Source: Pseudomonadota bacterium (GTDB lineage: Bacteria > Pseudomonadota > Alphaproteobacteria > Caulobacterales > Parvularculaceae). Taken from it: 64,000 nucleotides of DNA. Numbering within the stretch: position 1 is the stretch's first letter; every line of letters starts with the position of its first letter. The notes under the pieces are model-generated. The model was not told the DNA's origin, searched no databases, and saw nothing but the letters and a program-made list of their open reading frames with translations. The stretch is from positions 23,563 to 87,562 of the forward strand of contig JBMOOR010000157.1 of the NCBI GenBank assembly GCA_049324555.1. The letters are read 5' to 3'. Positions 4,093 to 19,769 of this stretch are shown here, in pieces. Made by a program: the position numbers and the translations under genes.

Positions 4093-4166
4093 CAGCCTCA
4101 GTGTTCGCATGTCCGACAACATTGCGGCGATCAGGACGCTGACTTCAGATCTCACAGCTCCGCACA

Positions 4167-4458
4167 TCCTGATCGGCTCCTTGTGCCCGGCTCCCGCTGA
4201 CGCTCCCGCCGCGCCCGCTCGCTAAGGGCTCTGCCCTCGCGCGGGCAAGGGATCGCTGACGCTCGGCCAGGGCGGTCTCCCCGACCTTCCGCGCGGATGC
4301 GACTTTGGGCACCCAACAACTCCAGAAATCCGCTTGTGCAGGCCGGGTGATCCCCCTCCGCCCCGGCCGCCCTTGCCCTTGCTACCCCGGTCTCGCCGAC
4401 GGGCAGGGCTGCAGCGCAGCGCTGCGCTGCAACCCAAGCCCATAGGAGAAAGACCATG
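4167..4458 (+). repeat. ~290-bp structured leader repeat, copy 1 (ends at ParB-like ATG)
   Basis: Aligns with 11264-11557 from TCCTGATC through GCTAAGGGCT..., GGGTGATCCCCCTCCG..., and TGCAGCGCAGCGCTGCGCTGCAACCCAAGCCCATAGGAGAAAGACC to the ATG. Confidence 0.95.
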
Positions 4459-6519
4459 ACCACGAAAGCGAATGCCACCCCCGTCATCGAGAATGGCGCG
4501 ACGGTTTTCATCCCGCTCAACAAGCTCAAAAAGCATCCGAAGAACGCCCGGAAGACTCCGCACAGCGAGGCGTCCATCGAGGCGAAGGCGGCGAGCATCG
4601 CCGTTAAGGGTATCCTGCAAAACCTTGTGGTGGAGCCGGAGCTTGACGCCGAAGGCCAGCCGACCGGCTTCTATCTTGTCAGCATCGGTGAAGGCCGCAG
4701 ACTGGCGCAGCTTCTCCGCGCGAAGCGGAAGGAGATCAAGAAGACCGAGCCGATCCGCTGCGTCATCGACACGGAGAACGACGCCGCCGAGATCAGCCTT
4801 GACGAGAACGTGACCCGCGAAGACTTGCACCCCGCAGACCAGTTCGAGCGCTTCCGCGAGCTTGCGGAAGATCGCGGATGGGGCGCGGAGGAAATCGCGG
4901 CCCGCTTTGGCATGACCGCGCATGTGGTGAAGCAGCGGCTGCGTCTCGGCGCTGTCAGCCCCAAGCTGCTTCAGGTCTATCGCGATGGCGGCTTGACCCT
5001 CGACCAGTTGATGGCGTTCGCCATCACCGAGGATCATGCCCGGCAGGAGCAGGTCTATGAAAACCTCTCCTATAATAGAGAGCCGCGCCTCATCCGCCAC
5101 GACCTCATGAAGTCCAATGTGGCGGCGATGGATCGGCGCGCAATCTTCGTCGGCTCGGAAGCCTACGCGGAAGCTGGCGGCGTCATCCTCCGCGATCTGT
5201 TCACGGAGGATCGCGGCGGCTTCTACGAGGATGCCGCGTTGCTGGACCGGCTTGTCATCGAGAAACTGGAGCGGATCGCCGCCGAGGTTCAGGCGGAAGG
5301 CTGGAAGTGGGTTTCTGTCAATATCGACTACCCCCATGCCCACGGCCTGCGCCGCGCTTATCCGCGTCCGGTGGAGCTTTCCGAGGAAGACGCCGCCGCA
5401 TACGACGCCGCGCAGGAGGAATATGACCGCCTGTCGTCGGAATACGAAAGCGCGGAGGAACTGCCCCACGATGTGGACCAGCGCTTCGGAGAGCTTGAAG
5501 CGGAGATTGAGCGCATCGACGCCAAGCGCCATGCTTACGATCCCGACGAGCTCGCGCGCGGCGGCGCTTTCGTGGTCCTGAACCATGACGGGACCGCCCG
5601 CGTGGAGCGCGGTTTCATCCGCCCGGAGGACGAGAAGCCGGAGCCGGAGGAAGCCGAGGGCGGCGAAGCCATCATCGACGGCGTGCGCGTCAATGGCGAT
5701 GGCGGGATCATCGAGGGTGGCGACTATGACGAGGACGGGAGCCATGTTTCGGCGCTCGACACCGAGGACGAAGTAGCGGAGGACGACGGCAAGCCGCTGT
5801 CGGACCTTCTCATCCGCGACCTGACCGCTCACCGGACGCTTGGCCTTCGCCTTGCGCTTGGCGAGCAGCCGGACATGGCCTTGATCGCCGTCACGCATGC
5901 GCTCGCCGCACAGACCTTCTATCGCGGCGCGGATGCGGCCTGCCTCGAAATCCGTCCCACCAGTCCGCACCTTGGCGGACATGCGGACGGCATCGAGGAC
6001 ACGGCGGCAGGCAAGGCGCTGGCGGATCGTCACGCCGGATGGGCGGCGGACATGCCGCGCGACGTGGCGGACCTGTGGGGCTTCATCGCCGGGCTGGATC
6101 AGGCGAGCGTCATGGCGCTGTTCGCGCATTGCGCTTCGCTGACCGTCAACGCGGTGAAGCAGCCTTGGGAGCGGAAGCCTCGCGCGCACGAAACGGCGGA
6201 CAGGCTGGCGACGGCGCTCGCTCTCGACATGACGGCGCATTGGATGCCGACCGCACGGACCTATCTCGGCCGCGTGACCAAGGCGCACATTCTCGCCGCT
6301 GTACGCGAAGCCGTCAGCGACGAGGCGGCGGATCGCATCGCCAGCATGAAGAAGCAGCCGATGGCGGAAGCCGGTGAGCAGCTTCTTGCCGGGACCGGCT
6401 GGCTGCCGTCCCTCATGCGGACGCCCGAACCCGCATGGCTGACTGACGCCCACACCGCTGATGTCGAGGATGCGTCAGATGCGGAGAATGCCGACACCTT
6501 CTCCGTCGCGGCGGAATGA
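4456..6519 (+). CDS. ParB/Spo0J-like N-terminal domain protein of ICE/plasmid leading regions
   Basis: IPLNKLKKHPKNARK, GILQNLVV, GEGRRLA, ENVTREDLHPADQFERF; RBS AGGAGA; 687 aa. Confidence 0.85.
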   Translation: MTTKANATPVIENGATVFIPLNKLKKHPKNARKTPHSEASIEAKAASIAVKGILQNLVVEPELDAEGQPTGFYLVSIGEGRRLAQLLRAKRKEIKKTEPIRCVIDTENDAAEISLDENVTREDLHPADQFERFRELAEDRGWGAEEIAARFGMTAHVVKQRLRLGAVSPKLLQVYRDGGLTLDQLMAFAITEDHARQEQVYENLSYNREPRLIRHDLMKSNVAAMDRRAIFVGSEAYAEAGGVILRDLFTEDRGGFYEDAALLDRLVIEKLERIAAEVQAEGWKWVSVNIDYPHAHGLRRAYPRPVELSEEDAAAYDAAQEEYDRLSSEYESAEELPHDVDQRFGELEAEIERIDAKRHAYDPDELARGGAFVVLNHDGTARVERGFIRPEDEKPEPEEAEGGEAIIDGVRVNGDGGIIEGGDYDEDGSHVSALDTEDEVAEDDGKPLSDLLIRDLTAHRTLGLRLALGEQPDMALIAVTHALAAQTFYRGADAACLEIRPTSPHLGGHADGIEDTAAGKALADRHAGWAADMPRDVADLWGFIAGLDQASVMALFAHCASLTVNAVKQPWERKPRAHETADRLATALALDMTAHWMPTARTYLGRVTKAHILAAVREAVSDEAADRIASMKKQPMAEAGEQLLAGTGWLPSLMRTPEPAWLTDAHTADVEDASDAENADTFSVAAE

Positions 6520-6599: not shown

Positions 6600-6722
6600 G
6601 ACCTCGACTGTCCAAGGGCCGACTGCCGTGTTTCAGGTCGACAGAGAGGCCAAGCATTGGCACGATAGGGGCGACCGAAACACGGGGGCGAAGGACAAGG
6701 AACGGTAAGTAGGAGGACGATC

Positions 6723-7145
6723 ATGATCGCCGTAATGCTTATGAGCGTGGCGCTGATCGCGATCCTCTGTGTCGTCGCCTATAGGCTTGCCGTCTATGCG
6801 CTGCCCCTCATGCTCGGATTGACTGCCGCCCAATTCGCCAATCAAACCGGCTCCGGCCTGATCGGCGCGGGGCTCGTCGGCTTGGTCGCCGCAGGTGTGG
6901 CGTTTGGTATTCTAGCGCTTCTGTTCGACACGCTGCGCCAGCCGATCCTTCGCCTGATCGTGGCGCTAATTTTCGCCGCCCCCGCCGCCGTCGCGGGCTA
7001 CGCGCTCGTTCACGGCGTCACACGCGAGGCCGTGCCCTCGGAGGTCTGGCGGCAGATTTTCTGCATAAGCGGCGGCGCGTTCGTCGGCATATCCGCACTT
7101 TTGCGATTGGCCGCGCCGGTTGATGCCAGACCAATCGGCGCATAG
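6723..7145 (+). CDS. Hydrophobic membrane protein (ICE conserved hypothetical)
   Basis: RBS AGGAGG; about four hydrophobic segments; followed by CCAATCGGC/GCCGATTGG hairpin. Confidence 0.7.
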   Translation: MIAVMLMSVALIAILCVVAYRLAVYALPLMLGLTAAQFANQTGSGLIGAGLVGLVAAGVAFGILALLFDTLRQPILRLIVALIFAAPAAVAGYALVHGVTREAVPSEVWRQIFCISGGAFVGISALLRLAAPVDARPIGA

Positions 7146-7175
7146 CCGATTGGCGCACGACCGCGTGAGTTGGTG

Positions 7176-7565
7176 TCATTTCCGATGATAGGTCAGCGCC
7201 AATGCGATGCAGTGGCGCAGCGCCGCCAGCGGCAAGCGCGAGGTGAGATCAAATAGAAGCGCGCGGTTGCCGATAAACCGAAACTTGTCTGGATAAAGGT
7301 CGCGGAACTGCTGCAGCAGATTCGTCGTGCAGATGAAATACATCGTGACCTCGTTGGGCGCTTTCACCTTCCACCCAAGCCGCACCGTGCTGCCCTTTGT
7401 TGTCCGGTAGGCCGGCTCCCCCCACTTGGGCGATTCCTCTACGTCGCCTGCGTTTGCTCGCTCGGCAGCGTCGAAAATGATCTGCCGCAGACTCAGCAAG
7501 CGCGTGCGCGCCTCCACCGGCATAGCATGCAAGACCGCAGCCACCTCTGAATTGATGGTCTTCAT
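7176..7565 (-). CDS. DUF1801 (YdhG-like) protein
   Basis: RLLSLRQIIFDAA...VEESPKWGEPAY...GSTVRLGWK pattern; 129 aa from ATG at 7565. Confidence 0.75.
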   Translation of the reverse strand: MKTINSEVAAVLHAMPVEARTRLLSLRQIIFDAAERANAGDVEESPKWGEPAYRTTKGSTVRLGWKVKAPNEVTMYFICTTNLLQQFRDLYPDKFRFIGNRALLFDLTSRLPLAALRHCIALALTYHRK

Positions 7566-8372
7566 GTTTCGCCTCCGTGCCGCGAACACATCATCCGCCG
7601 CCGTCAGTTCTTCTACCAGAGTCCTTAAACCCAAATTTGGAGCGTTGCCCTTCGGGCCGCGCTTTCGGCTTCGCCGGCACCACGCCTTCGGCGCGTTTCC
7701 GCCATTCGGCTTCAATCGCTAACGCAAGAGAGGGCGGAGGCGGCCAGCTCGCACGACGTCCCGCCATGTCGGGCTCCATCGAGATTCCGGCCTCTATCGC
7801 CGCGTCGAGATCATGAGGCAGCCTCGCCACCTCGGCCGCGACACGCTCCGGCAGCTTGAACGGGAGCGGCGGGATCGTCGTCGTGACTTAGCGGATCGCA
7901 CCGCATCCCTCATGCCGGCTTCATCGGCGGCGCAACGGTCGCGCCAGTAAAGATGCGAAAGATAGCCGGCACAAATTGTCGTTGACCGGATCATTCCAGC
8001 GAGTCTTGTCAGTGAGGGCGATGGCTTCAACTTGACCGTCGTTGATCCCGCATCGTCGGCTTGGCGCGGAGGCCGACCGTCGCCTGTCGTGCCCATGTCG
8101 ATTTCCATGCTGGCCGCCCATCCGCGCCCTCGATTGGCAGGGGTCTGACCGAAGACCGGCGCCGCTGCGCGTCGCCTCGCTCGTCTTCCCGCAACGACCG
8201 TCGCCAGCTTTTTTCCGCCGCCTTCGGCTTTGCATCGCGAAGCAAAAAAGCCGTCGCCGGCCGCCTTCCACTGAGTTTCAGCCCTGACGGGTGCGGGGCC
8301 GATCGTCCCCGGTCGCACGACCCCCATCGAGGTCGCGATGGGCGCGGCCCGATTGGAAAAAGGAACACGACA

Positions 8373-8687
8373 ATGGCGACCATCGGCACCTTCACCAGCA
8401 CCGACAACGGCTACACCGGCACGGTCAAGACCCTCACTCTCAACGTCAAGACCGTGAAGTTCGTCCCGGCCGAGGGCGACAGCGAACGCGGCCCCGACTT
8501 TCGCATCTTTGCCGGCGCCACCGAGTTCGGCGCCGCCTGGAAGAAGACCGCCCGCGAGACGCAGCGCGAATACCTCTCCGTCAAGCTGGACGATCCGAGC
8601 TTCGCCGCCCCGATTTACACCAGCCTGGTCGCGGCCGAGGACGGCGAGAGCCACAACCTCATCTGGTCCCGCCGCAACGGCGACTGA
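8373..8687 (+). CDS. DUF736 family protein, copy 1
   Basis: MATIGTFT...GTVKTLTL...[16 protein letters not shown]...[16 protein letters not shown]; RBS AAGGAA. Confidence 0.9.
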
Positions 8688-9483: not shown

Positions 9484-9606
9484 CGTCGCGCCAAGCCTCC
9501 TCGAATGAGCCATCCTACAAGCCTCAAGTGTGGCCGTGAAGGGACGAGCGGAAGGTCGCACACAGCGGCCACCGCTTTTTGGTCCCCGTCCGCTATCGGC
9601 GAATGC

Positions 9607-11155
9607 TGTTGCAAAAGTCGGTGATTTCGGCGGTTTCCTCTCGTCGAGGTGCGGCTTGGTCGAGTTTGGCGACCGGCGGTTCCAACGCCGGGCTGCCTTC
9701 GCTGGGTCTATGCGGCGGCCGTTGCGGGGCTTGGCGGGGCGACAAGCTTGGCGAGTTTTCTAAGGTTCTGAGCAGCCGCGGCGAGAGTGAATTCGTCGTG
9801 TGCGCCCGACGGCCCGCGCAGCCGCAGCCGATCGAGCTTCAAGATGCGCTTCAGGTGCGCGAACAGCATCTCGACCTTCTTCCGCTCGCGGCGCGATTGC
9901 TCGTAGTCCGGCCCAGCGTTGATCGCGCGGGCGACATCGCGCGCGGCTTCGTGGACGCTGCGTGTGACCTTGCGCATGGGTTGGCCGGGACAGCAGCGCT
10001 GCTTGAGCGGGCAAGCGCCGCAATCTGATTGCCGTGCGCGATAGCGTTTCTGGCCATCTTTGTTGACGCCGGATCGCGATGTTTCGTAGGCGCGCCGATA
10101 TTGCACCAGGGTTTTGCCGCCCGGGCATGTGTAGGCGTTGGCGTCGGCGTCAAACACAAAATCGGAGCGGCTGAAGGTCCCGTCGTCGCGCTCGCCTTTG
10201 TCCCACACCGGCACGTGTGGCGCGATGTTCTTCTCGTCGACCATCCAGGCCAGCATTTCCGCTGTCCCGTAAGCAGTGTCGCCGATCAGCCGCTTGGGCC
10301 TCATGCCGAAACGGTCCTCAACGCGATCGATCATCGCCTTCGTCGCCGCGACTTCCGCCGTGCGCAGCGCAGGCGTGGCCGCGACATCCATGATCACCGC
10401 GTGCTTCACATCGATCAAGTAATTCGTGCACCAGCCGAAGAAAGCTGGACGTCCCACTGCCGCTGTCAGCCGTGATGCGGGATCCGAGAGCGAAATCTCC
10501 TTCGGCGGCGCAGCTTCGCGATCAAGGCCGTCGAGATATTCGCGCACTGCGCGGCTGGGGCCGCCTCCGCCCGCACCGCCACTCCAATCGTGGTCGTCGC
10601 CGCCGTCGATGTGATTTTGGCGGTTGGCGTCAGCGCGAATGATGCTGGCATCCGTCGCGAAGCCTTCGCCGCCGACCAGACCCTTCTCGATGCAGGACCT
10701 GACCGTCGTCTCGAACACGTGGCGCAGAACCTCGGCGTCGCGAAAGCGGCCATGACGGGCTCTCGAGAACGCCGAATGGTCCGGGATTGCGTCTTCAAGG
10801 CCCAGTCGGCAAAACCAACGATAAGCCAGGTTGAGGCGGACCTCCTCACACAGGCGCCGTTCAGAGCGGATGCCGTAGCAATAGCCGATCAAGAGCATCC
10901 GGATCATCAGCTCGGGATCGATCGAAGGCCGCCCGGTGTGCGAATAGTAGGGCGCGAGCTGCGTCCTCAGACCGGAGAGATCGAGCACCGCGTCGATCCT
11001 GCGCAACAGATGATCGCCCGGAACCGCCTCATCCAGATTGAACTGATAGAAAAACTGGCCCTGCGCGCCGGCTTTCTCTCCCATCATCGTCGCCTCCCTC
11101 GCTCGCAGCACAAGGGAATCAGCGTTCGCCTAACAACGCATGGAGTTTTGCAACA
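9607..11155 (-). mobile_element. IS1182-family insertion sequence
   Basis: Terminal inverted repeats TGTTGCAAAAGTC (9607-9619) and GAGTTTTGCAACA (11143-11155) enclosing a transposase. Confidence 0.85.
9708..11087 (-). CDS. IS1182-family DDE transposase
   Basis: HLLRRID, GRPSIDPELMIRMLLIGYCYGIRSERRL, IPDHSAFSRARHGRF, DASII, GDTAYG, RKKVEMLFAHLK. Confidence 0.95.
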   Translation of the reverse strand: MMGEKAGAQGQFFYQFNLDEAVPGDHLLRRIDAVLDLSGLRTQLAPYYSHTGRPSIDPELMIRMLLIGYCYGIRSERRLCEEVRLNLAYRWFCRLGLEDAIPDHSAFSRARHGRFRDAEVLRHVFETTVRSCIEKGLVGGEGFATDASIIRADANRQNHIDGGDDHDWSGGAGGGGPSRAVREYLDGLDREAAPPKEISLSDPASRLTAAVGRPAFFGWCTNYLIDVKHAVIMDVAATPALRTAEVAATKAMIDRVEDRFGMRPKRLIGDTAYGTAEMLAWMVDEKNIAPHVPVWDKGERDDGTFSRSDFVFDADANAYTCPGGKTLVQYRRAYETSRSGVNKDGQKRYRARQSDCGACPLKQRCCPGQPMRKVTRSVHEAARDVARAINAGPDYEQSRRERKKVEMLFAHLKRILKLDRLRLRGPSGAHDEFTLAAAAQNLRKLAKLVAPPSPATAAA

Positions 11156-11263
11156 AAATTGGCGAGTTCCCGACTGGGACAGTAAGGGGCTCTGGCGTCC
11201 GCCTTAAAACTGTGACTGGCCGGCTGAATCCTTGGCCCACCATTGCTCTTCAGCAAATATATG

Positions 11264-11557
11264 TCCTGATCAGATCCTTTGCCCGGCCGCCGCTGGCGCT
11301 CTGGCCGCGCCGATCTTGCTAAGGGCTCCGCCCTCGCGCGGCGCAAGGGATCGCTGACGCTCGGCCGGGACGGTCTCCCCGACCTTCCGCGCGGATGCGT
11401 GCTGCGCACTGTCGTCATGCCTCCATCCGCTTGTGCAGGCCGGGTGATCCCCCTCCGTCCCGGCCGCCCTTGCACCTTGCTACCCCGGTCTCGCCGACGG
11501 GCAGGGCTGCAGCGCAGCGCTGCGCTGCAACCCAAGCCCATAGGAGAAAGACCAATG
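11264..11557 (+). repeat. ~290-bp structured leader repeat, copy 2 (ends at DUF932 ATG)
   Basis: Homologous to 4167-4458 except a ~28-nt central loop. Confidence 0.95.
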
Positions 11558-12745
11558 AACACCGTGACCCTGAACCCGCAGTCTGTTTCGTCCGGTTTCC
11601 GCGTGGATGTTTCGCGCGGACAGCGGATCGGCCGCGTTTCGTCGGAGTGGTTTTCGCGCCCAGATGACGAGCGCTTTCTGTCGCTCACGGAGCTTTACGA
11701 CACCGTGAAGGCGAGAGCGGAGCGCGCCACCGCCCGCACCGTGGAGAGCCGCGCCGTGCGCGTGGAGGCGAACAGGGAGGATGCGGAGCGGCTTTCGCTT
11801 ATCGTTCCCGGACAGGATGAGCCCATCGCGCCGACGCATTGGAGCTTCGGCCAGCTTTGCAGTCTTGTAGGAGCGCCCGCCAGCTATATGCGCCAGCTCC
11901 CCGCGCCACTCGCAGGCATCAATCTGCAGCATGGCTTGCTGTCGCACCGCGCCGAGCTTGTGAAGACCTTGGAGGCGGAAGACGGACGCATCGAGCTTCG
12001 CGCCGTGACCGGGCCGGACTATGGCCGCATTTGGGATCACGAGCTTGTCGCCGCCGTGATGCGGATCGCGGGGAACGGCATTGGCGATACGATGTGGAAG
12101 GTGCCGGGCGTGCTGGATTGGGCGACCATGACGCACAACCCCTTTATTGACGTGACCAAGGACACGACGACGCTTTATGCGAGCGACCGCGACGTGTTCC
12201 TGTTTCTCGTGGACGACACGCACCCCATCGAAGCCGGGCGGCTTCCGAACGGCGAGCCGGATTTGTATTTCCGGGGCTTCTATTGCTGGAATAGCGAAGT
12301 CGGTAGCAAGACCCTCGGCATCGCCTCTTTTTATCTCCGCGCGGTGTGCATGAACCGCAATCTTTGGGGCGTGGAAGGCTTCGAAGAAATCAGCATCCGG
12401 CACAGCAAGTTCGCCGCGCAACGCTTCGCCCATGAAGCGGCCCCCGCGCTGACCAGCTTTGCCAATTCGTCGCCCGCGCCTTTCGTGGCGGGGATCAGGG
12501 CGGCGCGGGAAAGGATCGTCGCCCGCACCGACGAGGACCGCGAAGGCTTCCTGCGCAAGCGCGGCTTCTCCAAGGCCGAGACGGCGAAGATCATCGAGAC
12601 CGTGTTGCAGGAGGATGGCCGTCCGCCGGAAAGCATCTTCGATTTCGCGCAAGGCATGACGGCGCATGCCCGCACCAAGGCGCATCAGGACACGCGCCTT
12701 GAACTGGAGGCGAAGGCGAAGACCTTGCTTGAGAAGGCCGCATAG
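11555..12745 (+). CDS. DUF932 domain protein (phage/plasmid-like)
   Basis: RVSSEWFSRPDDERFLSL, PTHWSFGQL, LRAVTGPDYGRIWD, LYASDRDVFLFLVD, NSEVGS; RBS AGGAGA; 396 aa. Confidence 0.85.
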   Translation: MNTVTLNPQSVSSGFRVDVSRGQRIGRVSSEWFSRPDDERFLSLTELYDTVKARAERATARTVESRAVRVEANREDAERLSLIVPGQDEPIAPTHWSFGQLCSLVGAPASYMRQLPAPLAGINLQHGLLSHRAELVKTLEAEDGRIELRAVTGPDYGRIWDHELVAAVMRIAGNGIGDTMWKVPGVLDWATMTHNPFIDVTKDTTTLYASDRDVFLFLVDDTHPIEAGRLPNGEPDLYFRGFYCWNSEVGSKTLGIASFYLRAVCMNRNLWGVEGFEEISIRHSKFAAQRFAHEAAPALTSFANSSPAPFVAGIRAARERIVARTDEDREGFLRKRGFSKAETAKIIETVLQEDGRPPESIFDFAQGMTAHARTKAHQDTRLELEAKAKTLLEKAA

Positions 12746-17510: not shown

Positions 17511-17551
17511 GGGCAAGATAAAACAAAGCGGCACCCTGTCGGGCCGCTTTG
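17511..17551 (-). promoter_or_regulatory. Candidate oriT: IR plus RP4-like nic site
   Basis: Minus strand TATCTTG^CCC (17520-17511) versus RP4 TATCCTG^CCC, preceded on that strand by the 9-bp IR CAAAGCGGC/GCCGCTTTG (17524-17551); lies just upstream of the relaxase. Confidence 0.6.
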
Positions 17552-17717
17552 GCAAATTGTTGTTGTCTGCACACTGGTTAGGGTCGCCTCGCACGGCACT
17601 CCATTTGCTGGCAGTGCGTGCCGTCCATTGGCTCAACCCGTTGGCTTCGCTGACTTCTCAACGGCACCATAGCTCAGAACGGTGCGTTTTCGCCCCATTG
17701 CCGCCAGGACGGCGCCC

Positions 17718-19769
17718 ATGAGCGCCGACGACGAGGATCGGTTTCGGCCGAGGCCGGGCCGCATCCGATCCGACACACGCGGCGGCGCGCGGACCAAGAG
17801 CTTCTTCACCAGGGTAAGGAAGATCACCCGGCAGCAGTGCACCGCGCCAGCTCGCCATGGCCCGCGCCGGAGCGCGAGCGCTTCGGCCAAGGGCGCCGCC
17901 CGCGCGCGCGCCGCCAGTGGACCCGGCGTCAGACGCGGGCGCGGTGCGGCCTTCATTCGGTCGCGCCAGCTCGCGGGCGGTTGGCGCCACAGCCAGCCCG
18001 GTGTGCGTCGCGTCGTCGTCAAAACGCGCTTCGTCCACAAGGCCGGAAGGAACGGCAAGGCCGCCGCCCATCTGCGCTATATCCAGCGCGACGGCACGGC
18101 GCGCGACGGCGAACGCGGCCAGCTCTATTCTGAGACGGAGGATCGCGCCGACGGACGCAGCTTTCTGGAACGTGGCAAGGAGGATCGCCACCAGTTCCGC
18201 TTCATCATCTCGCCCGAAGACGGCGCCGACCTGTCGGACCTCAAAGCTCACACCCGCGACCTTATGAACCAGATGGAAGCGGACCTCGGCACGAAGCTCG
18301 ATTGGGTCGCGGTCAATCACTACAACACCGGTCATCCGCATGTTCATGTCATCGTCAACGGGCGTGACGAGCTGGGCGGGGATCTGGTCATCAACGGCGA
18401 CTATCTCGCCAACGGCATCCGCGAGCGGGCGAGCGAGTTGGCGACGCTCGAACTCGGCCCCGTCACCGAGATCGAGCAGCGCCGCAAGTTATCGGCTGAG
18501 ATCGACCAGGACCGCTTCACTCGCATCGACCGGGCGATGACGGAAGAAGCCGAGGACCGCTTCCTCGATCTGTGCCATCAGCCGGCCGAACCGAGACGCC
18601 AGTTCAACCGTGCGCTTCGCCTGCGCCGCCTCGCCAAGCTGGAGAAGATGGGGCTCGCTGCCGAGCATGCGCCCGGCGTCTGGGAGCTAAGCGAGCGGCT
18701 GGTGCCGACCTTGCGCGCGTTGGGCGAGCGCGGCGACATCGTCCGCTCCATGCACAAGGCGCTGAAGGCCGATGGCATGGAGCGCGATCCGATGACCTTT
18801 CGCATCCACGAGGCCGCGCCCGAAACATCCATCGTCGGCCGCGTCGTCGACAAATACCTGTCCGACGAACTGGGTGAGAACCTCACTCTTGTCGTCGATG
18901 GGATCGATGGGCAGACGCACCATGTCTCCAGCATTGAGCCGGCTCGCGTGGACGACGCACGAATCGGCAGCATCGTCGAGATCGGCCCGGCCGAAGCGAC
19001 GCGGCGTCCGTCCGACCAAGCCATCGCCTCCATCGCCGAGAGCGGGGTCTATCGGCCGAGCCGACATCTGGAGCAGGCCCGCTTCGAGGGGCGTGTTCCG
19101 GGCGGCGACTATCAGGGCTTTATCGACGCCCATGTCCGCCGGCTGGAGGCGTTGCGCCGCGCTGGTATTGCCGAGCGGATCGACGCTGACCAATGGCGCA
19201 TCCCCGAAGACTTCGAGCATCGCGCCACCGCCTACGACGCCGGTCGGCGCCGGCAGGCCAATATCCGCATCCTTTCGGCCTTCGATCTGGACAAGCAGAT
19301 CGGCGCCGACGGCGCGACCTGGCTCGATCGGCGGCTGATCGTCGGCGAGGCTTCCGATCTCGCCCCCGCCGGCTTCGGGCAGCAGGTTCGCGACGCAATG
19401 GACCGCCGGCGCGATCACCTAATCGACCGGGGCGACGCCACCCGCCAACAGAACGGCCGCGTCTTCTACCGGCGCAATCTCCTCGCTACGCTGCGCGAAC
19501 GCGATGTCGCTCGCGCCGGCGCCGAACTGGCGACGAGCAAGACCATGCCGTTCCGCGCCGCAAGAGACGGCGAAACCGTCGGCGGCAAGTTCACCGGCGC
19601 CGTCCAGCTATCGAGCGGCAAGTTCGCCATCGTCGAAAAGAGTTATGAGTTCACCCTTGTCCCCTGGCGGCCGGTCATCGACCGTCAACTCGGCCGCGAA
19701 GTCATGGGCGTCGTGCAAGGGGGGTCGGTATCGTGGCAGTTGGGACGGCAAAGGGGTCTCGGGCTGTGA
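17718..19769 (+). CDS. rlxS: VirD2/MOBP-type relaxase with DUF3363 C-terminus (RlxS-like)
   Basis: AHLRYIQRDG (catalytic Tyr), RHQFRFIISPEDG, HYNTGHPHVHVIV (HUH). Confidence 0.92.
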   Translation: MSADDEDRFRPRPGRIRSDTRGGARTKSFFTRVRKITRQQCTAPARHGPRRSASASAKGAARARAASGPGVRRGRGAAFIRSRQLAGGWRHSQPGVRRVVVKTRFVHKAGRNGKAAAHLRYIQRDGTARDGERGQLYSETEDRADGRSFLERGKEDRHQFRFIISPEDGADLSDLKAHTRDLMNQMEADLGTKLDWVAVNHYNTGHPHVHVIVNGRDELGGDLVINGDYLANGIRERASELATLELGPVTEIEQRRKLSAEIDQDRFTRIDRAMTEEAEDRFLDLCHQPAEPRRQFNRALRLRRLAKLEKMGLAAEHAPGVWELSERLVPTLRALGERGDIVRSMHKALKADGMERDPMTFRIHEAAPETSIVGRVVDKYLSDELGENLTLVVDGIDGQTHHVSSIEPARVDDARIGSIVEIGPAEATRRPSDQAIASIAESGVYRPSRHLEQARFEGRVPGGDYQGFIDAHVRRLEALRRAGIAERIDADQWRIPEDFEHRATAYDAGRRRQANIRILSAFDLDKQIGADGATWLDRRLIVGEASDLAPAGFGQQVRDAMDRRRDHLIDRGDATRQQNGRVFYRRNLLATLRERDVARAGAELATSKTMPFRAARDGETVGGKFTGAVQLSSGKFAIVEKSYEFTLVPWRPVIDRQLGREVMGVVQGGSVSWQLGRQRGLGL

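Follow-up and report, generated by a model that had tools for sequence, protein, structure and literature searches.

Single-stranded DNA (ssDNA) promoters of the Frpo/ssi type are found in the leading regions of IncF and IncI1 plasmids, where classes 1–3 are distinguished (PMC12672017) and a survey is available (PMC11541004). Frpo/ssi induction fails in Sinorhizobium, and host restriction has been suggested (PMC12672017). Here, we describe a non-coding cassette that stands in two copies, leaders A and B, in a 64,000-nt stretch of a Parvularculaceae genome (Pseudomonadota bacterium, assembly GCA_049324555.1, contig JBMOOR010000157.1, positions 23,563 to 87,562), hereafter the window, to which all coordinates refer. 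The cassette is a conserved, previously undescribed control element of conjugative elements, for the most part integrative and conjugative elements (ICEs) and plasmids of Alphaproteobacteria, in which it is located before genes for anti-restriction and establishment. Its best explanation, to which we would give an even chance, is a fold-back promoter or priming signal on the transferred strand, fused to an mRNA leader that would mask the Shine–Dalgarno (SD) sequence and bearing a hairpin tip that would be gauged by its length and tolerant of its sequence.

The cassette shares several traits with Frpo/ssi. Both consist of dispersed homologous non-coding repeats (~200–330 nt) directly before genes, which are the leading-region genes ssb, psiB, ardA and a methylase gene for Frpo/ssi and ArdA, ArdC, ParB-like, DUF932 and methylase genes, in a probable leading region, for the cassette. 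The Frpo/ssi genes have the transferred strand as their template and are directed toward the origin of transfer (oriT), and the genes behind the cassette are predicted to be so arranged relative to a candidate oriT. A long imperfect hairpin with mismatches lies on that strand in Frpo/ssi and on the predicted transferred strand here. Unlike Frpo/ssi, the cassette is GC-rich, has no recognizable −35/−10 hexamers in its stem, is hosted mainly by Alphaproteobacteria and is fused to a second, mRNA-level module; its ssDNA activity is putative. The two are not similar in sequence, as blastn against 28 Gb of complete Escherichia coli genomes and plasmids gave no match. Frpo is reportedly the subject of work by Masai and Arai in 1997. 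The radC and STAXI motifs, said to have been described by Weinberg et al. in 2010 as structured non-coding elements near integrase, anti-restriction, SSB and methylase genes, with the choice between RNA and ssDNA left open, are also conserved structured elements beside mobile-element genes. Their Rfam models, however, did not match the leader even at E ≤ 10, and the architecture differs.

Two leaders and a widespread family

Leader A (~4170–4455) precedes the ATG at 4456 of a gene encoding a 687-aa ParB-like protein, and leader B (~11265–11554) precedes the ATG at 11555 of a 396-aa gene; each is about 285 nt long. Outside one variable segment, the two match at 96–98% in gap-free blocks. The segment is 29 nt long in leader A (4299–4327) and 28 nt long in leader B (11397–11424) and is flanked in both by GCGGAT and ATCCGC (4293–4298 and 4328–4333 in leader A), exactly where an original prediction, made from the letters of the window, had placed it. 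The repeat is no chance match, since homologous leaders are present in many other genomes and plasmids; in their own genome (3.67 Mb in 310 contigs), A and B are the only two copies. The parts of the leaders and the genes behind them are as follows.

4226–4236, no strand assigned: P1 hairpin of leader A (GGGC-TCT-GCCC), in the conserved block CTAAGGGC...GCCCTCGCGCGG, with covarying pairs
4243–4378, minus strand: module 1 of leader A, the central imperfect fold-back, supported by covariation and pairing best on the minus strand
4299–4327, no strand assigned: tip of the central hairpin of leader A, 29 nt, a divergent member of the '...GAA' tip type
4379–4455, plus strand: module 2 of leader A, with the invariant TTGCTACCCC, pairing with the SD/spacer region and enclosing P7
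4456–6519, plus strand: ParB-like gene behind leader A, 687 aa, with Pfam HTH_ParB and NCBIfam ParB-family matches below cut-off
11340–11476 (ends approximate), minus strand: module 1 of leader B, the central fold-back, with a compensatory change in P3 relative to leader A
11397–11424, no strand assigned: tip of the central hairpin of leader B, 28 nt, of the '...YCC' type, seen only before DUF932 genes and those of the 396-aa family of leader B (u396)
11477–11554, plus strand: module 2 of leader B, the SD-pairing hairpin with P7
11555–12745, plus strand: 396-aa gene behind leader B, without a Pfam or NCBIfam match and with weak DUF932-like similarity

The last of these genes had been labelled DUF932 in the original prediction, a label that survives only as a weak similarity, the best DUF932 alignment (E = 0.17) lying around an NS..G...LR.VC.N motif. 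Its product belongs to a family of its own, a five-member cluster of 396–398-aa proteins, which four other genomes also encode behind the same leader. An insertion sequence (IS) element (9582–11180), located some 85 nt before leader B, has a DUF772/DDE transposase gene on the minus strand (9708–11111) and 38-nt imperfect terminal inverted repeats (9582–9619 and 11143–11180); it has displaced the original sequence upstream of this leader.

To collect the family, genome contigs were scanned with a pattern for its most conserved block, GTGCAG..GGGYGATCCCCCTC, which returned at least 120 contigs; together with the loci found earlier, these make at least 152 elements in at least 146 loci, and all family-wide counts given here are among the matches listed. 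Relatives occur in other alphaproteobacterial genomes and on plasmids from Rhizobium, Defluviicoccus, Bradyrhizobium, Caulobacter, Paracoccus, Nitrosospira and Thiothrix. Most hosts are Alphaproteobacteria, and copies are scattered over further lineages, including Thiothrix, Nitrosospira and Pseudoxanthomonas. The cassette is ~230–290 nt long and contains, in order, the invariant blocks CTAAGGGGC-n-GCCCCTCGCGCG, GGTnTCCCCGACCTTCC, GTGCAGGCCGGGTGATCCCCCTCC and CCTTGCTACCCCGGTCTCGCCGACGGGCAGGG, with covarying helices between them. No paper on such elements in Alphaproteobacteria was found in the literature.

The first downstream open reading frame (ORF) could be called for 135 elements. ParB-like genes are the commonest family (56 of 135), followed by DUF932 and ArdC genes (17 each), DUF3768 (8), ArdA and u396 (5 each), MerR (4) and N6/N4 DNA methylase genes (2), the rest being singletons. 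In one locus (L054), an IS110-family transposase gene (6675–7715) takes the place of an establishment gene after the leader and is probably an insertion behind it. In the 46 long-tip leaders whose gene could be called, the start codon lies at a fixed distance of 114–125 nt past the conserved core. The ssoA/ssoU origins of rolling-circle plasmids and the G4/phiX-type ssi, strand-specific structured ssDNA elements that recruit RNA polymerase or primase for complementary strand synthesis and work after conjugative mobilization, differ from the cassette in that they are not locked in register to a start codon.

Fold of the two modules

Module 1 is a central imperfect hairpin. In leader A, its basal helix P2 (4243–4251/4370–4378, GGGCAAGGG/CCCTTGCCC) has covarying pairs at eight of nine positions and is followed by a variable side hairpin, P2a (4252–4264), and by the 12-bp helix P3 (4265–4275/4358–4368), in which 10 of the 12 pairs covary and one compensatory change, G–C to A–T, separates leaders A and B. 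Beyond P3, an asymmetric internal loop with invariant bases leads to P4 (within 4276–4290/4339–4351) and then to P5, the GCGGAT/ATCCGC helix (4293–4298/4328–4333) that carries the tip. In the RNAalifold consensus, 15 of 30 predicted pairs show compensatory changes.

Module 2 starts with the invariant TTGCTACCCC, after which GGTCTCGCC (the arm GGUCUCGCC) pairs with the SD/spacer region, which reads AGGAGA (4444–4449) and AGACC (4451–4455) in leader A. This pairing is maintained by compensatory change in L042, where GGUCU/AGACC has become AUUCU/AGAAU. Between the two arms lies P7, a near-perfect palindrome before the ribosome-binding site (GGGCTGCAGCGCAGCGCTGCGCTGCAACCC; 4406–4435 in leader A and 11504–11533 in leader B). 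Because its sequence varies with compensatory changes in relatives and because it sits inside the larger SD-pairing hairpin, P7 looks like an RNA or DNA stem and not like a fixed protein site.

The two modules probably do not favour the same strand. When the consensus fold of the central hairpin was compared between strands (RNAalifold, 30 representatives), the energy was −37.8 kcal/mol on the minus strand versus −21.9 kcal/mol on the plus strand. One P4 column holds GC in 19 and GU in 9 representatives on the minus strand, and those nine are mismatched on the plus strand; another holds GU in 15, GC in 11 and AU in 3, and becomes C.A in half of them on the plus strand. Read in the plus sense, P3 and P4a together contain 67 A.C against 11 G.U pairs. 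The hairpin is more stable on the minus strand in 47–49 of 53 representatives, and on the plus strand in 1–4 of 53. Given this asymmetry of pairing from helix to helix, the best reading is that selection acts on the minus strand in module 1 and on the mRNA in module 2.

A length-fixed, fast-evolving tip

The variable segment is the fast-evolving, length-fixed tip of this hairpin, without detectable targets, and very probably no programmable guide. The original prediction described it as an apical loop, which holds for its position at the apex of the central covarying hairpin; it is no plain loop, since the tips of many relatives contain small covarying hairpins (GTGC/GCAC, ATGC/GCAT, GTGA/TCAC). 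Nor are the two window tips simply unrelated, as had been stated: they align poorly, agreeing in only ~10 columns (GCG, TG, GCAC, T, C), but both fall into one homologous tip family with a degenerate consensus.

Across the whole family, tip length, measured from the CCTTCC block to GTGCAG, spans 4–54 nt. Most tips are 11–21 nt long and form a plain hairpin end, such as GCGCCTTCGGCTT, and a second mode lies at 40–47 nt. Long tips are found before ParB-like genes in 42 of 49 cases; conversely, 14 of the 56 ParB-like leaders have no long tip (11 short, 3 not measurable). When the long or short state was mapped on a scaffold tree built without the tip, about five changes were counted. The few changes and the short tips of most members make the long tip a lineage trait and not a requirement of the family.

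Within the class of the window, length is held much more tightly. Metagenome contigs were scanned with CCTTCCGCGCGGAT-N(20-40)-ATCCGCTTGTGCAGG and combined with the genome loci, giving 96 instances of the GCGGAT...ATCCGC class and 77 unique tips. All are 28–31 nt long, although the pattern permitted 20–40: 7 are of 28 nt, 31 of 29 nt, 37 of 30 nt and 2 of 31 nt. Their consensus is gCGtg.t.T.cgCACt.tCGtcA...C.tcg. The 77 tips fold no better than shuffled sequences (z of about +0.3 under RNA and −0.35 under DNA parameters), and this comparison rules out that they are strongly folded extensions.

Tip type is linked to the downstream gene. The '...YCC' type stands before u396 or DUF932 genes in 17 of 17 cases and the '...GAA/GAC' type before ParB-like genes in 22 of 24, while '...TCG' tips are mostly found before ParB-like genes. 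Tip A aligns to tips such as ACGTCTTTCAGCACTTCCGCAACTCCGGAA and is a divergent '...GAA' tip that has lost a small inverted repeat present on the 3′ side in its relatives. A tip found elsewhere is only 1 nt different from tip B, which is also 89% identical to those of L091 and L111, whose 5′ scaffolds are merely 64% identical to that of leader B. In the clade of the window, the 3′ halves of the scaffold are 81–96% identical to the window copies, and with a scaffold so conserved, the contrast between A and B reflects a relaxed centre set in a constrained frame. A and B share derived states to either side of the tip, namely, P2a and a paired change in P7; these shared flanks suggest gene conversion or patch recombination via the invariant flanks. 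The two leaders of one element, L205, have identical tips, and it is thus ruled out that tips must differ within an element.

Compared with the leaders of related ParB-like genes, tip A has diverged at least as far as synonymous sites: its identity to their tips is 0.39–0.64, and third-position identity at identical residues is 0.54–0.77 over 19 comparisons (0.70–0.77 for the closest relatives). A neutral loop under length constraint, one of the two options first offered, comes close to the data, given the 28–31-nt class length and this low identity; the degenerate consensus and the gene-linked types show, however, that the segment is not fully neutral.

The other option, a programmable segment that would guide a scaffold RNA or ssDNA or set its specificity, is very improbable and already largely refuted. 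A conserved scaffold around a variable, length-fixed centre and the partly different histories of tip and scaffold would suit it. The search for targets covered the own genome, with 100 shuffled controls per tip, and phage and plasmid records, and gave nothing complementary or identical above chance. In the own genome, the best matches are 12–13 nt (24–26 bits), against shuffled means of 26–27 bits; 2.3 Gb of phage records held no match to either tip, and 7.3 Gb of plasmid records held matches only at E ≥ 0.7. The broad family-wide length distribution and the lack of targets above chance are two of the three outcomes that the original prediction had named as refuting its view. The long segment is absent from most members, the identical tips of L205 occur within one element, and tips that share a consensus and gene-linked types are not free in sequence. 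The partner genes are anti-restriction and establishment genes, not of a kind that uses guides, and no guide-using nuclease or recombinase is associated, apart from the sole IS110-type transposase mentioned above. The value of the variable tip itself is thus mostly negative, as it points to scaffold constraint with relaxed, length-limited drift in place of programmability.

The tip might instead be a double-stranded operator or parS-like site co-evolving with the ParB-like protein or another regulator of the element. The fixed length and the position of the long tips before ParB-like genes would agree with this, as would short palindromes that change symmetrically in many tips (GTCATGAC, GCCATGGC and the 14-nt TCCGTCATGACGGA inside one tip). 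Such a site is, however, improbable. Copy A has lost the palindrome, similar tips stand before DUF932 and u396 genes, and a quarter of the ParB-like leaders do without a measurable long tip. Co-evolution with the ParB-like protein is not supported, since tip type departs from the ParB tree: the closest relatives of the window protein (80–82% identity) carry tips of other types, whose identity to tip A (0.39–0.55) is at random level.

A further group of twelve 42-nt tips, mostly from Brevundimonas (L006, L049, L052, L057, L063, L074, L075, L083, L093, L127, L130, L132), is near-random in sequence, with a mean pairwise identity of 0.49. All 12 nevertheless share a strict three-base pattern in the same phase (purine 90%, pyrimidine 78%, G/C 88%), codon-like on both strands with hydrophobic codons, and their folding tends to be weaker than that of shuffles. 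The pattern is not explained by any conserved ORF, start or frame. This periodicity prompted the idea of a small ORF through the tip on either strand (a hydrophobic peptide, a type-I-toxin-like gene or an upstream ORF), which was ruled out: lengths differ by non-multiples of three, frames vary between classes and, downstream, within a class, start and SD are not conserved, and such GC content by itself leads one to expect long open frames on either strand.

Transfer polarity and a possible fold-back promoter

Two features of the window bear on which strand is transferred.

17511–17552, minus strand: candidate oriT, with an inverted repeat (17526–17552) and then TATCTTG/CCC (17511–17520) on the minus strand
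17682–19769, plus strand: relaxase, with a MobA/VirD2-like nuclease domain and DUF3363, by domain matches

The candidate oriT lies just upstream of the relaxase gene. We take TATCTTG/CCC to resemble the nic region of RP4, and because this resemblance is on the minus strand, the minus strand is the probable transferred strand. The relaxase gene is downstream of the leaders and co-oriented with them in the window, and a homologous relaxase gene is so placed in all five other loci that hold both leader and relaxase. Both leaders, like the genes behind them, are directed toward the relaxase and the candidate oriT; with the predicted transferred strand as template, the arrangement would correspond to the Frpo/ssi geometry (PMC11541004, PMC12672017). 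After nicking at the candidate oriT, the minus strand would enter the recipient 5′-first, bringing in leader B after ~6 kb and leader A after ~13 kb, both of them early, and would also be the template for both genes. On plasmid pCB4 of Caulobacter henricii (L011), which has four copies of the leader, three precede genes of the ArdC-like, ParB-like and DUF3768 families, which are directed toward the mobC region, where the candidate oriT of this plasmid is placed (mobC–merR intergenic).

In the proposed mechanism, module 1 would comprise P1 and the long imperfect hairpin P2–P5 with its invariant internal loops, folding on the template strand, that is, the predicted transferred strand. By analogy with Frpo/ssi, it may present RNA polymerase or a priming enzyme with a duplex at which to enter the incoming single strand, and the gene would thereby be read before the complementary strand is synthesized. 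Module 2 would act in the mRNA as a hairpin pairing with the ribosome-binding region. The tip would lie beyond the conserved recognition parts; it is a short hairpin end in most members, and one lineage, mostly ParB-like leaders, would have gained an extension of ~30 nt. Of this extension, only the length and a few bases would be preserved, the remainder being free to drift, and recombination through the invariant flanks may occasionally swap or homogenize tips. The two leaders would then look identical with an 'unalignable' centre because the tip drifts and is occasionally swapped within a kept scaffold.

A number of observations weigh against this explanation. The strand-specific long imperfect hairpin is present on the predicted transferred strand, and weaker after control for composition: z values against shuffles are −2.76 on the minus and −2.32 on the plus strand, with the minus strand lower in only 26 of 40 cases, so that the minus-strand advantage is partly one of base composition (G-richness). 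On the plus strand, G.U outnumbers A.C in P1 and P7, a bias opposite to that of the central hairpin, and G.U-rich helices fit a minus-sense RNA at least as well as DNA. A consensus scan for sigma-70 −35/−10 pairs gave 0 sites on either strand of both leaders, although the E. coli consensus used may not suit an alphaproteobacterial RNA polymerase, and no −35/−10 boxes could be placed by eye in the hairpin arms; a defining feature of Frpo, boxes in the stem, is therefore missing. The strict length of 28–31 nt and the conserved bases show that the tip is not mere filler. On pCB4, the fourth copy (11908–12077, in the mobC–merR intergenic region) stands before merR and is directed away from the presumed oriT. 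Relatives of the leader also appear in metatranscriptome contigs of four RNA libraries, which lack strand and 5′ ends and are uninformative on transcription.

These contigs break at the tip, where several variants co-occur, and their depth mirrors conservation. A look by eye for sigma-54, sigma-32 and extracytoplasmic-function (ECF)-type motifs in module 1, and for initiation at a bubble there, came to nothing. MerR-linked leader copies similar to the one of pCB4 are found in three other loci.

The main rival is a purely RNA-level leader, which we consider unlikely but deserving of serious attention. The whole cassette would be the 5′ leader of a plus-strand mRNA, a cis-regulatory RNA acting on translation or stability, with the tip as a variable expansion segment and no ssDNA step. 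The fixed register to the SD and the start codon, the compensatory changes in the pairing of module 2 with the SD/spacer region and the plus-strand bias of P1 and P7 all fit this, as do the relatives in RNA libraries, where DNA carry-over is possible. On the plus strand, however, the central hairpin loses P4, with C.A at one column in half of the representatives, and the consensus energy is ~16 kcal/mol weaker. A promoter upstream of P1 is not recognizable, and there is no Rfam family match: no Rfam 15 model matches the leader, the one gathering-score match in the window being a tRNA, and at E ≤ 10 only chance-level miRNA-type matches were obtained over 4100–4480.

Reading the minus-sense fold as RNA leads to a second, distinctly less probable rival, in which module 1 would be a cis-antisense RNA repressing the leader, like FinP/traJ or CopA/CopT, and the tip a kissing-loop that sets specificity. 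The FinP alleles of F-like plasmids differ by variable loops in a conserved stem, and the cassette shares this design of conserved stem and loops differing between related plasmids. In the minus sense, where the hairpin folds best, G.U pairs are abundant, as is typical of RNA. The invariant GGGGTAGCAAGG lies just upstream in that sense and might represent a weak −10, and the GC-rich P1 downstream might be a stem resembling a terminator. Unlike in those systems, neither a sigma-70-like promoter nor a T-run terminator was found on the minus strand, most family members have 3–5-nt hairpin ends, and the tips are no more structured than shuffles. The identical tips of L205 further indicate that orthogonality is not required.

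Under the preferred explanation, a fold-back signal on the transferred strand, the ~30-nt tip could be an add-on to the promoter hairpin: a length-gauged, weakly structured ssDNA platform recognized by its size and a few bases, by an ssDNA-binding factor of the host or the element or by RNA polymerase. We regard this role as speculative and rather unlikely. SSB, which stimulates Frpo, would be one candidate binder, and the extension would tune how strongly ParB-type leaders fire on incoming ssDNA. If true, this would be a new design principle for ssDNA promoters.

In most GGAT-class tips, the conserved plus-sense CGTCA/CGCCA (e.g. 11409–11415) reads (A/T)TG(A/G)CG in the minus sense, which resembles TTGACG, the −35 box of Alphaproteobacteria; a −10 to go with it could not be located.

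Demonstrated ssDNA promoters have so far been confined to enterobacterial IncF and IncI plasmids. The cassette is widespread in Alphaproteobacteria and sequence-unrelated to them, with what is probably the same placement and a strand-specific fold. If the preferred explanation is true, it would show how alphaproteobacterial ICEs and plasmids switch on ArdA, ArdC, ParB-like and DUF932 genes right after entry, and leading regions, with new anti-defence genes in them, could be located by the sequence of the cassette.

Between the two leaders, the window holds another, different structured non-coding stretch (8030–8372) before a DUF736 gene (Pfam DUF736 in the ORF at 8061–8687), which the original prediction listed as a second leader family.

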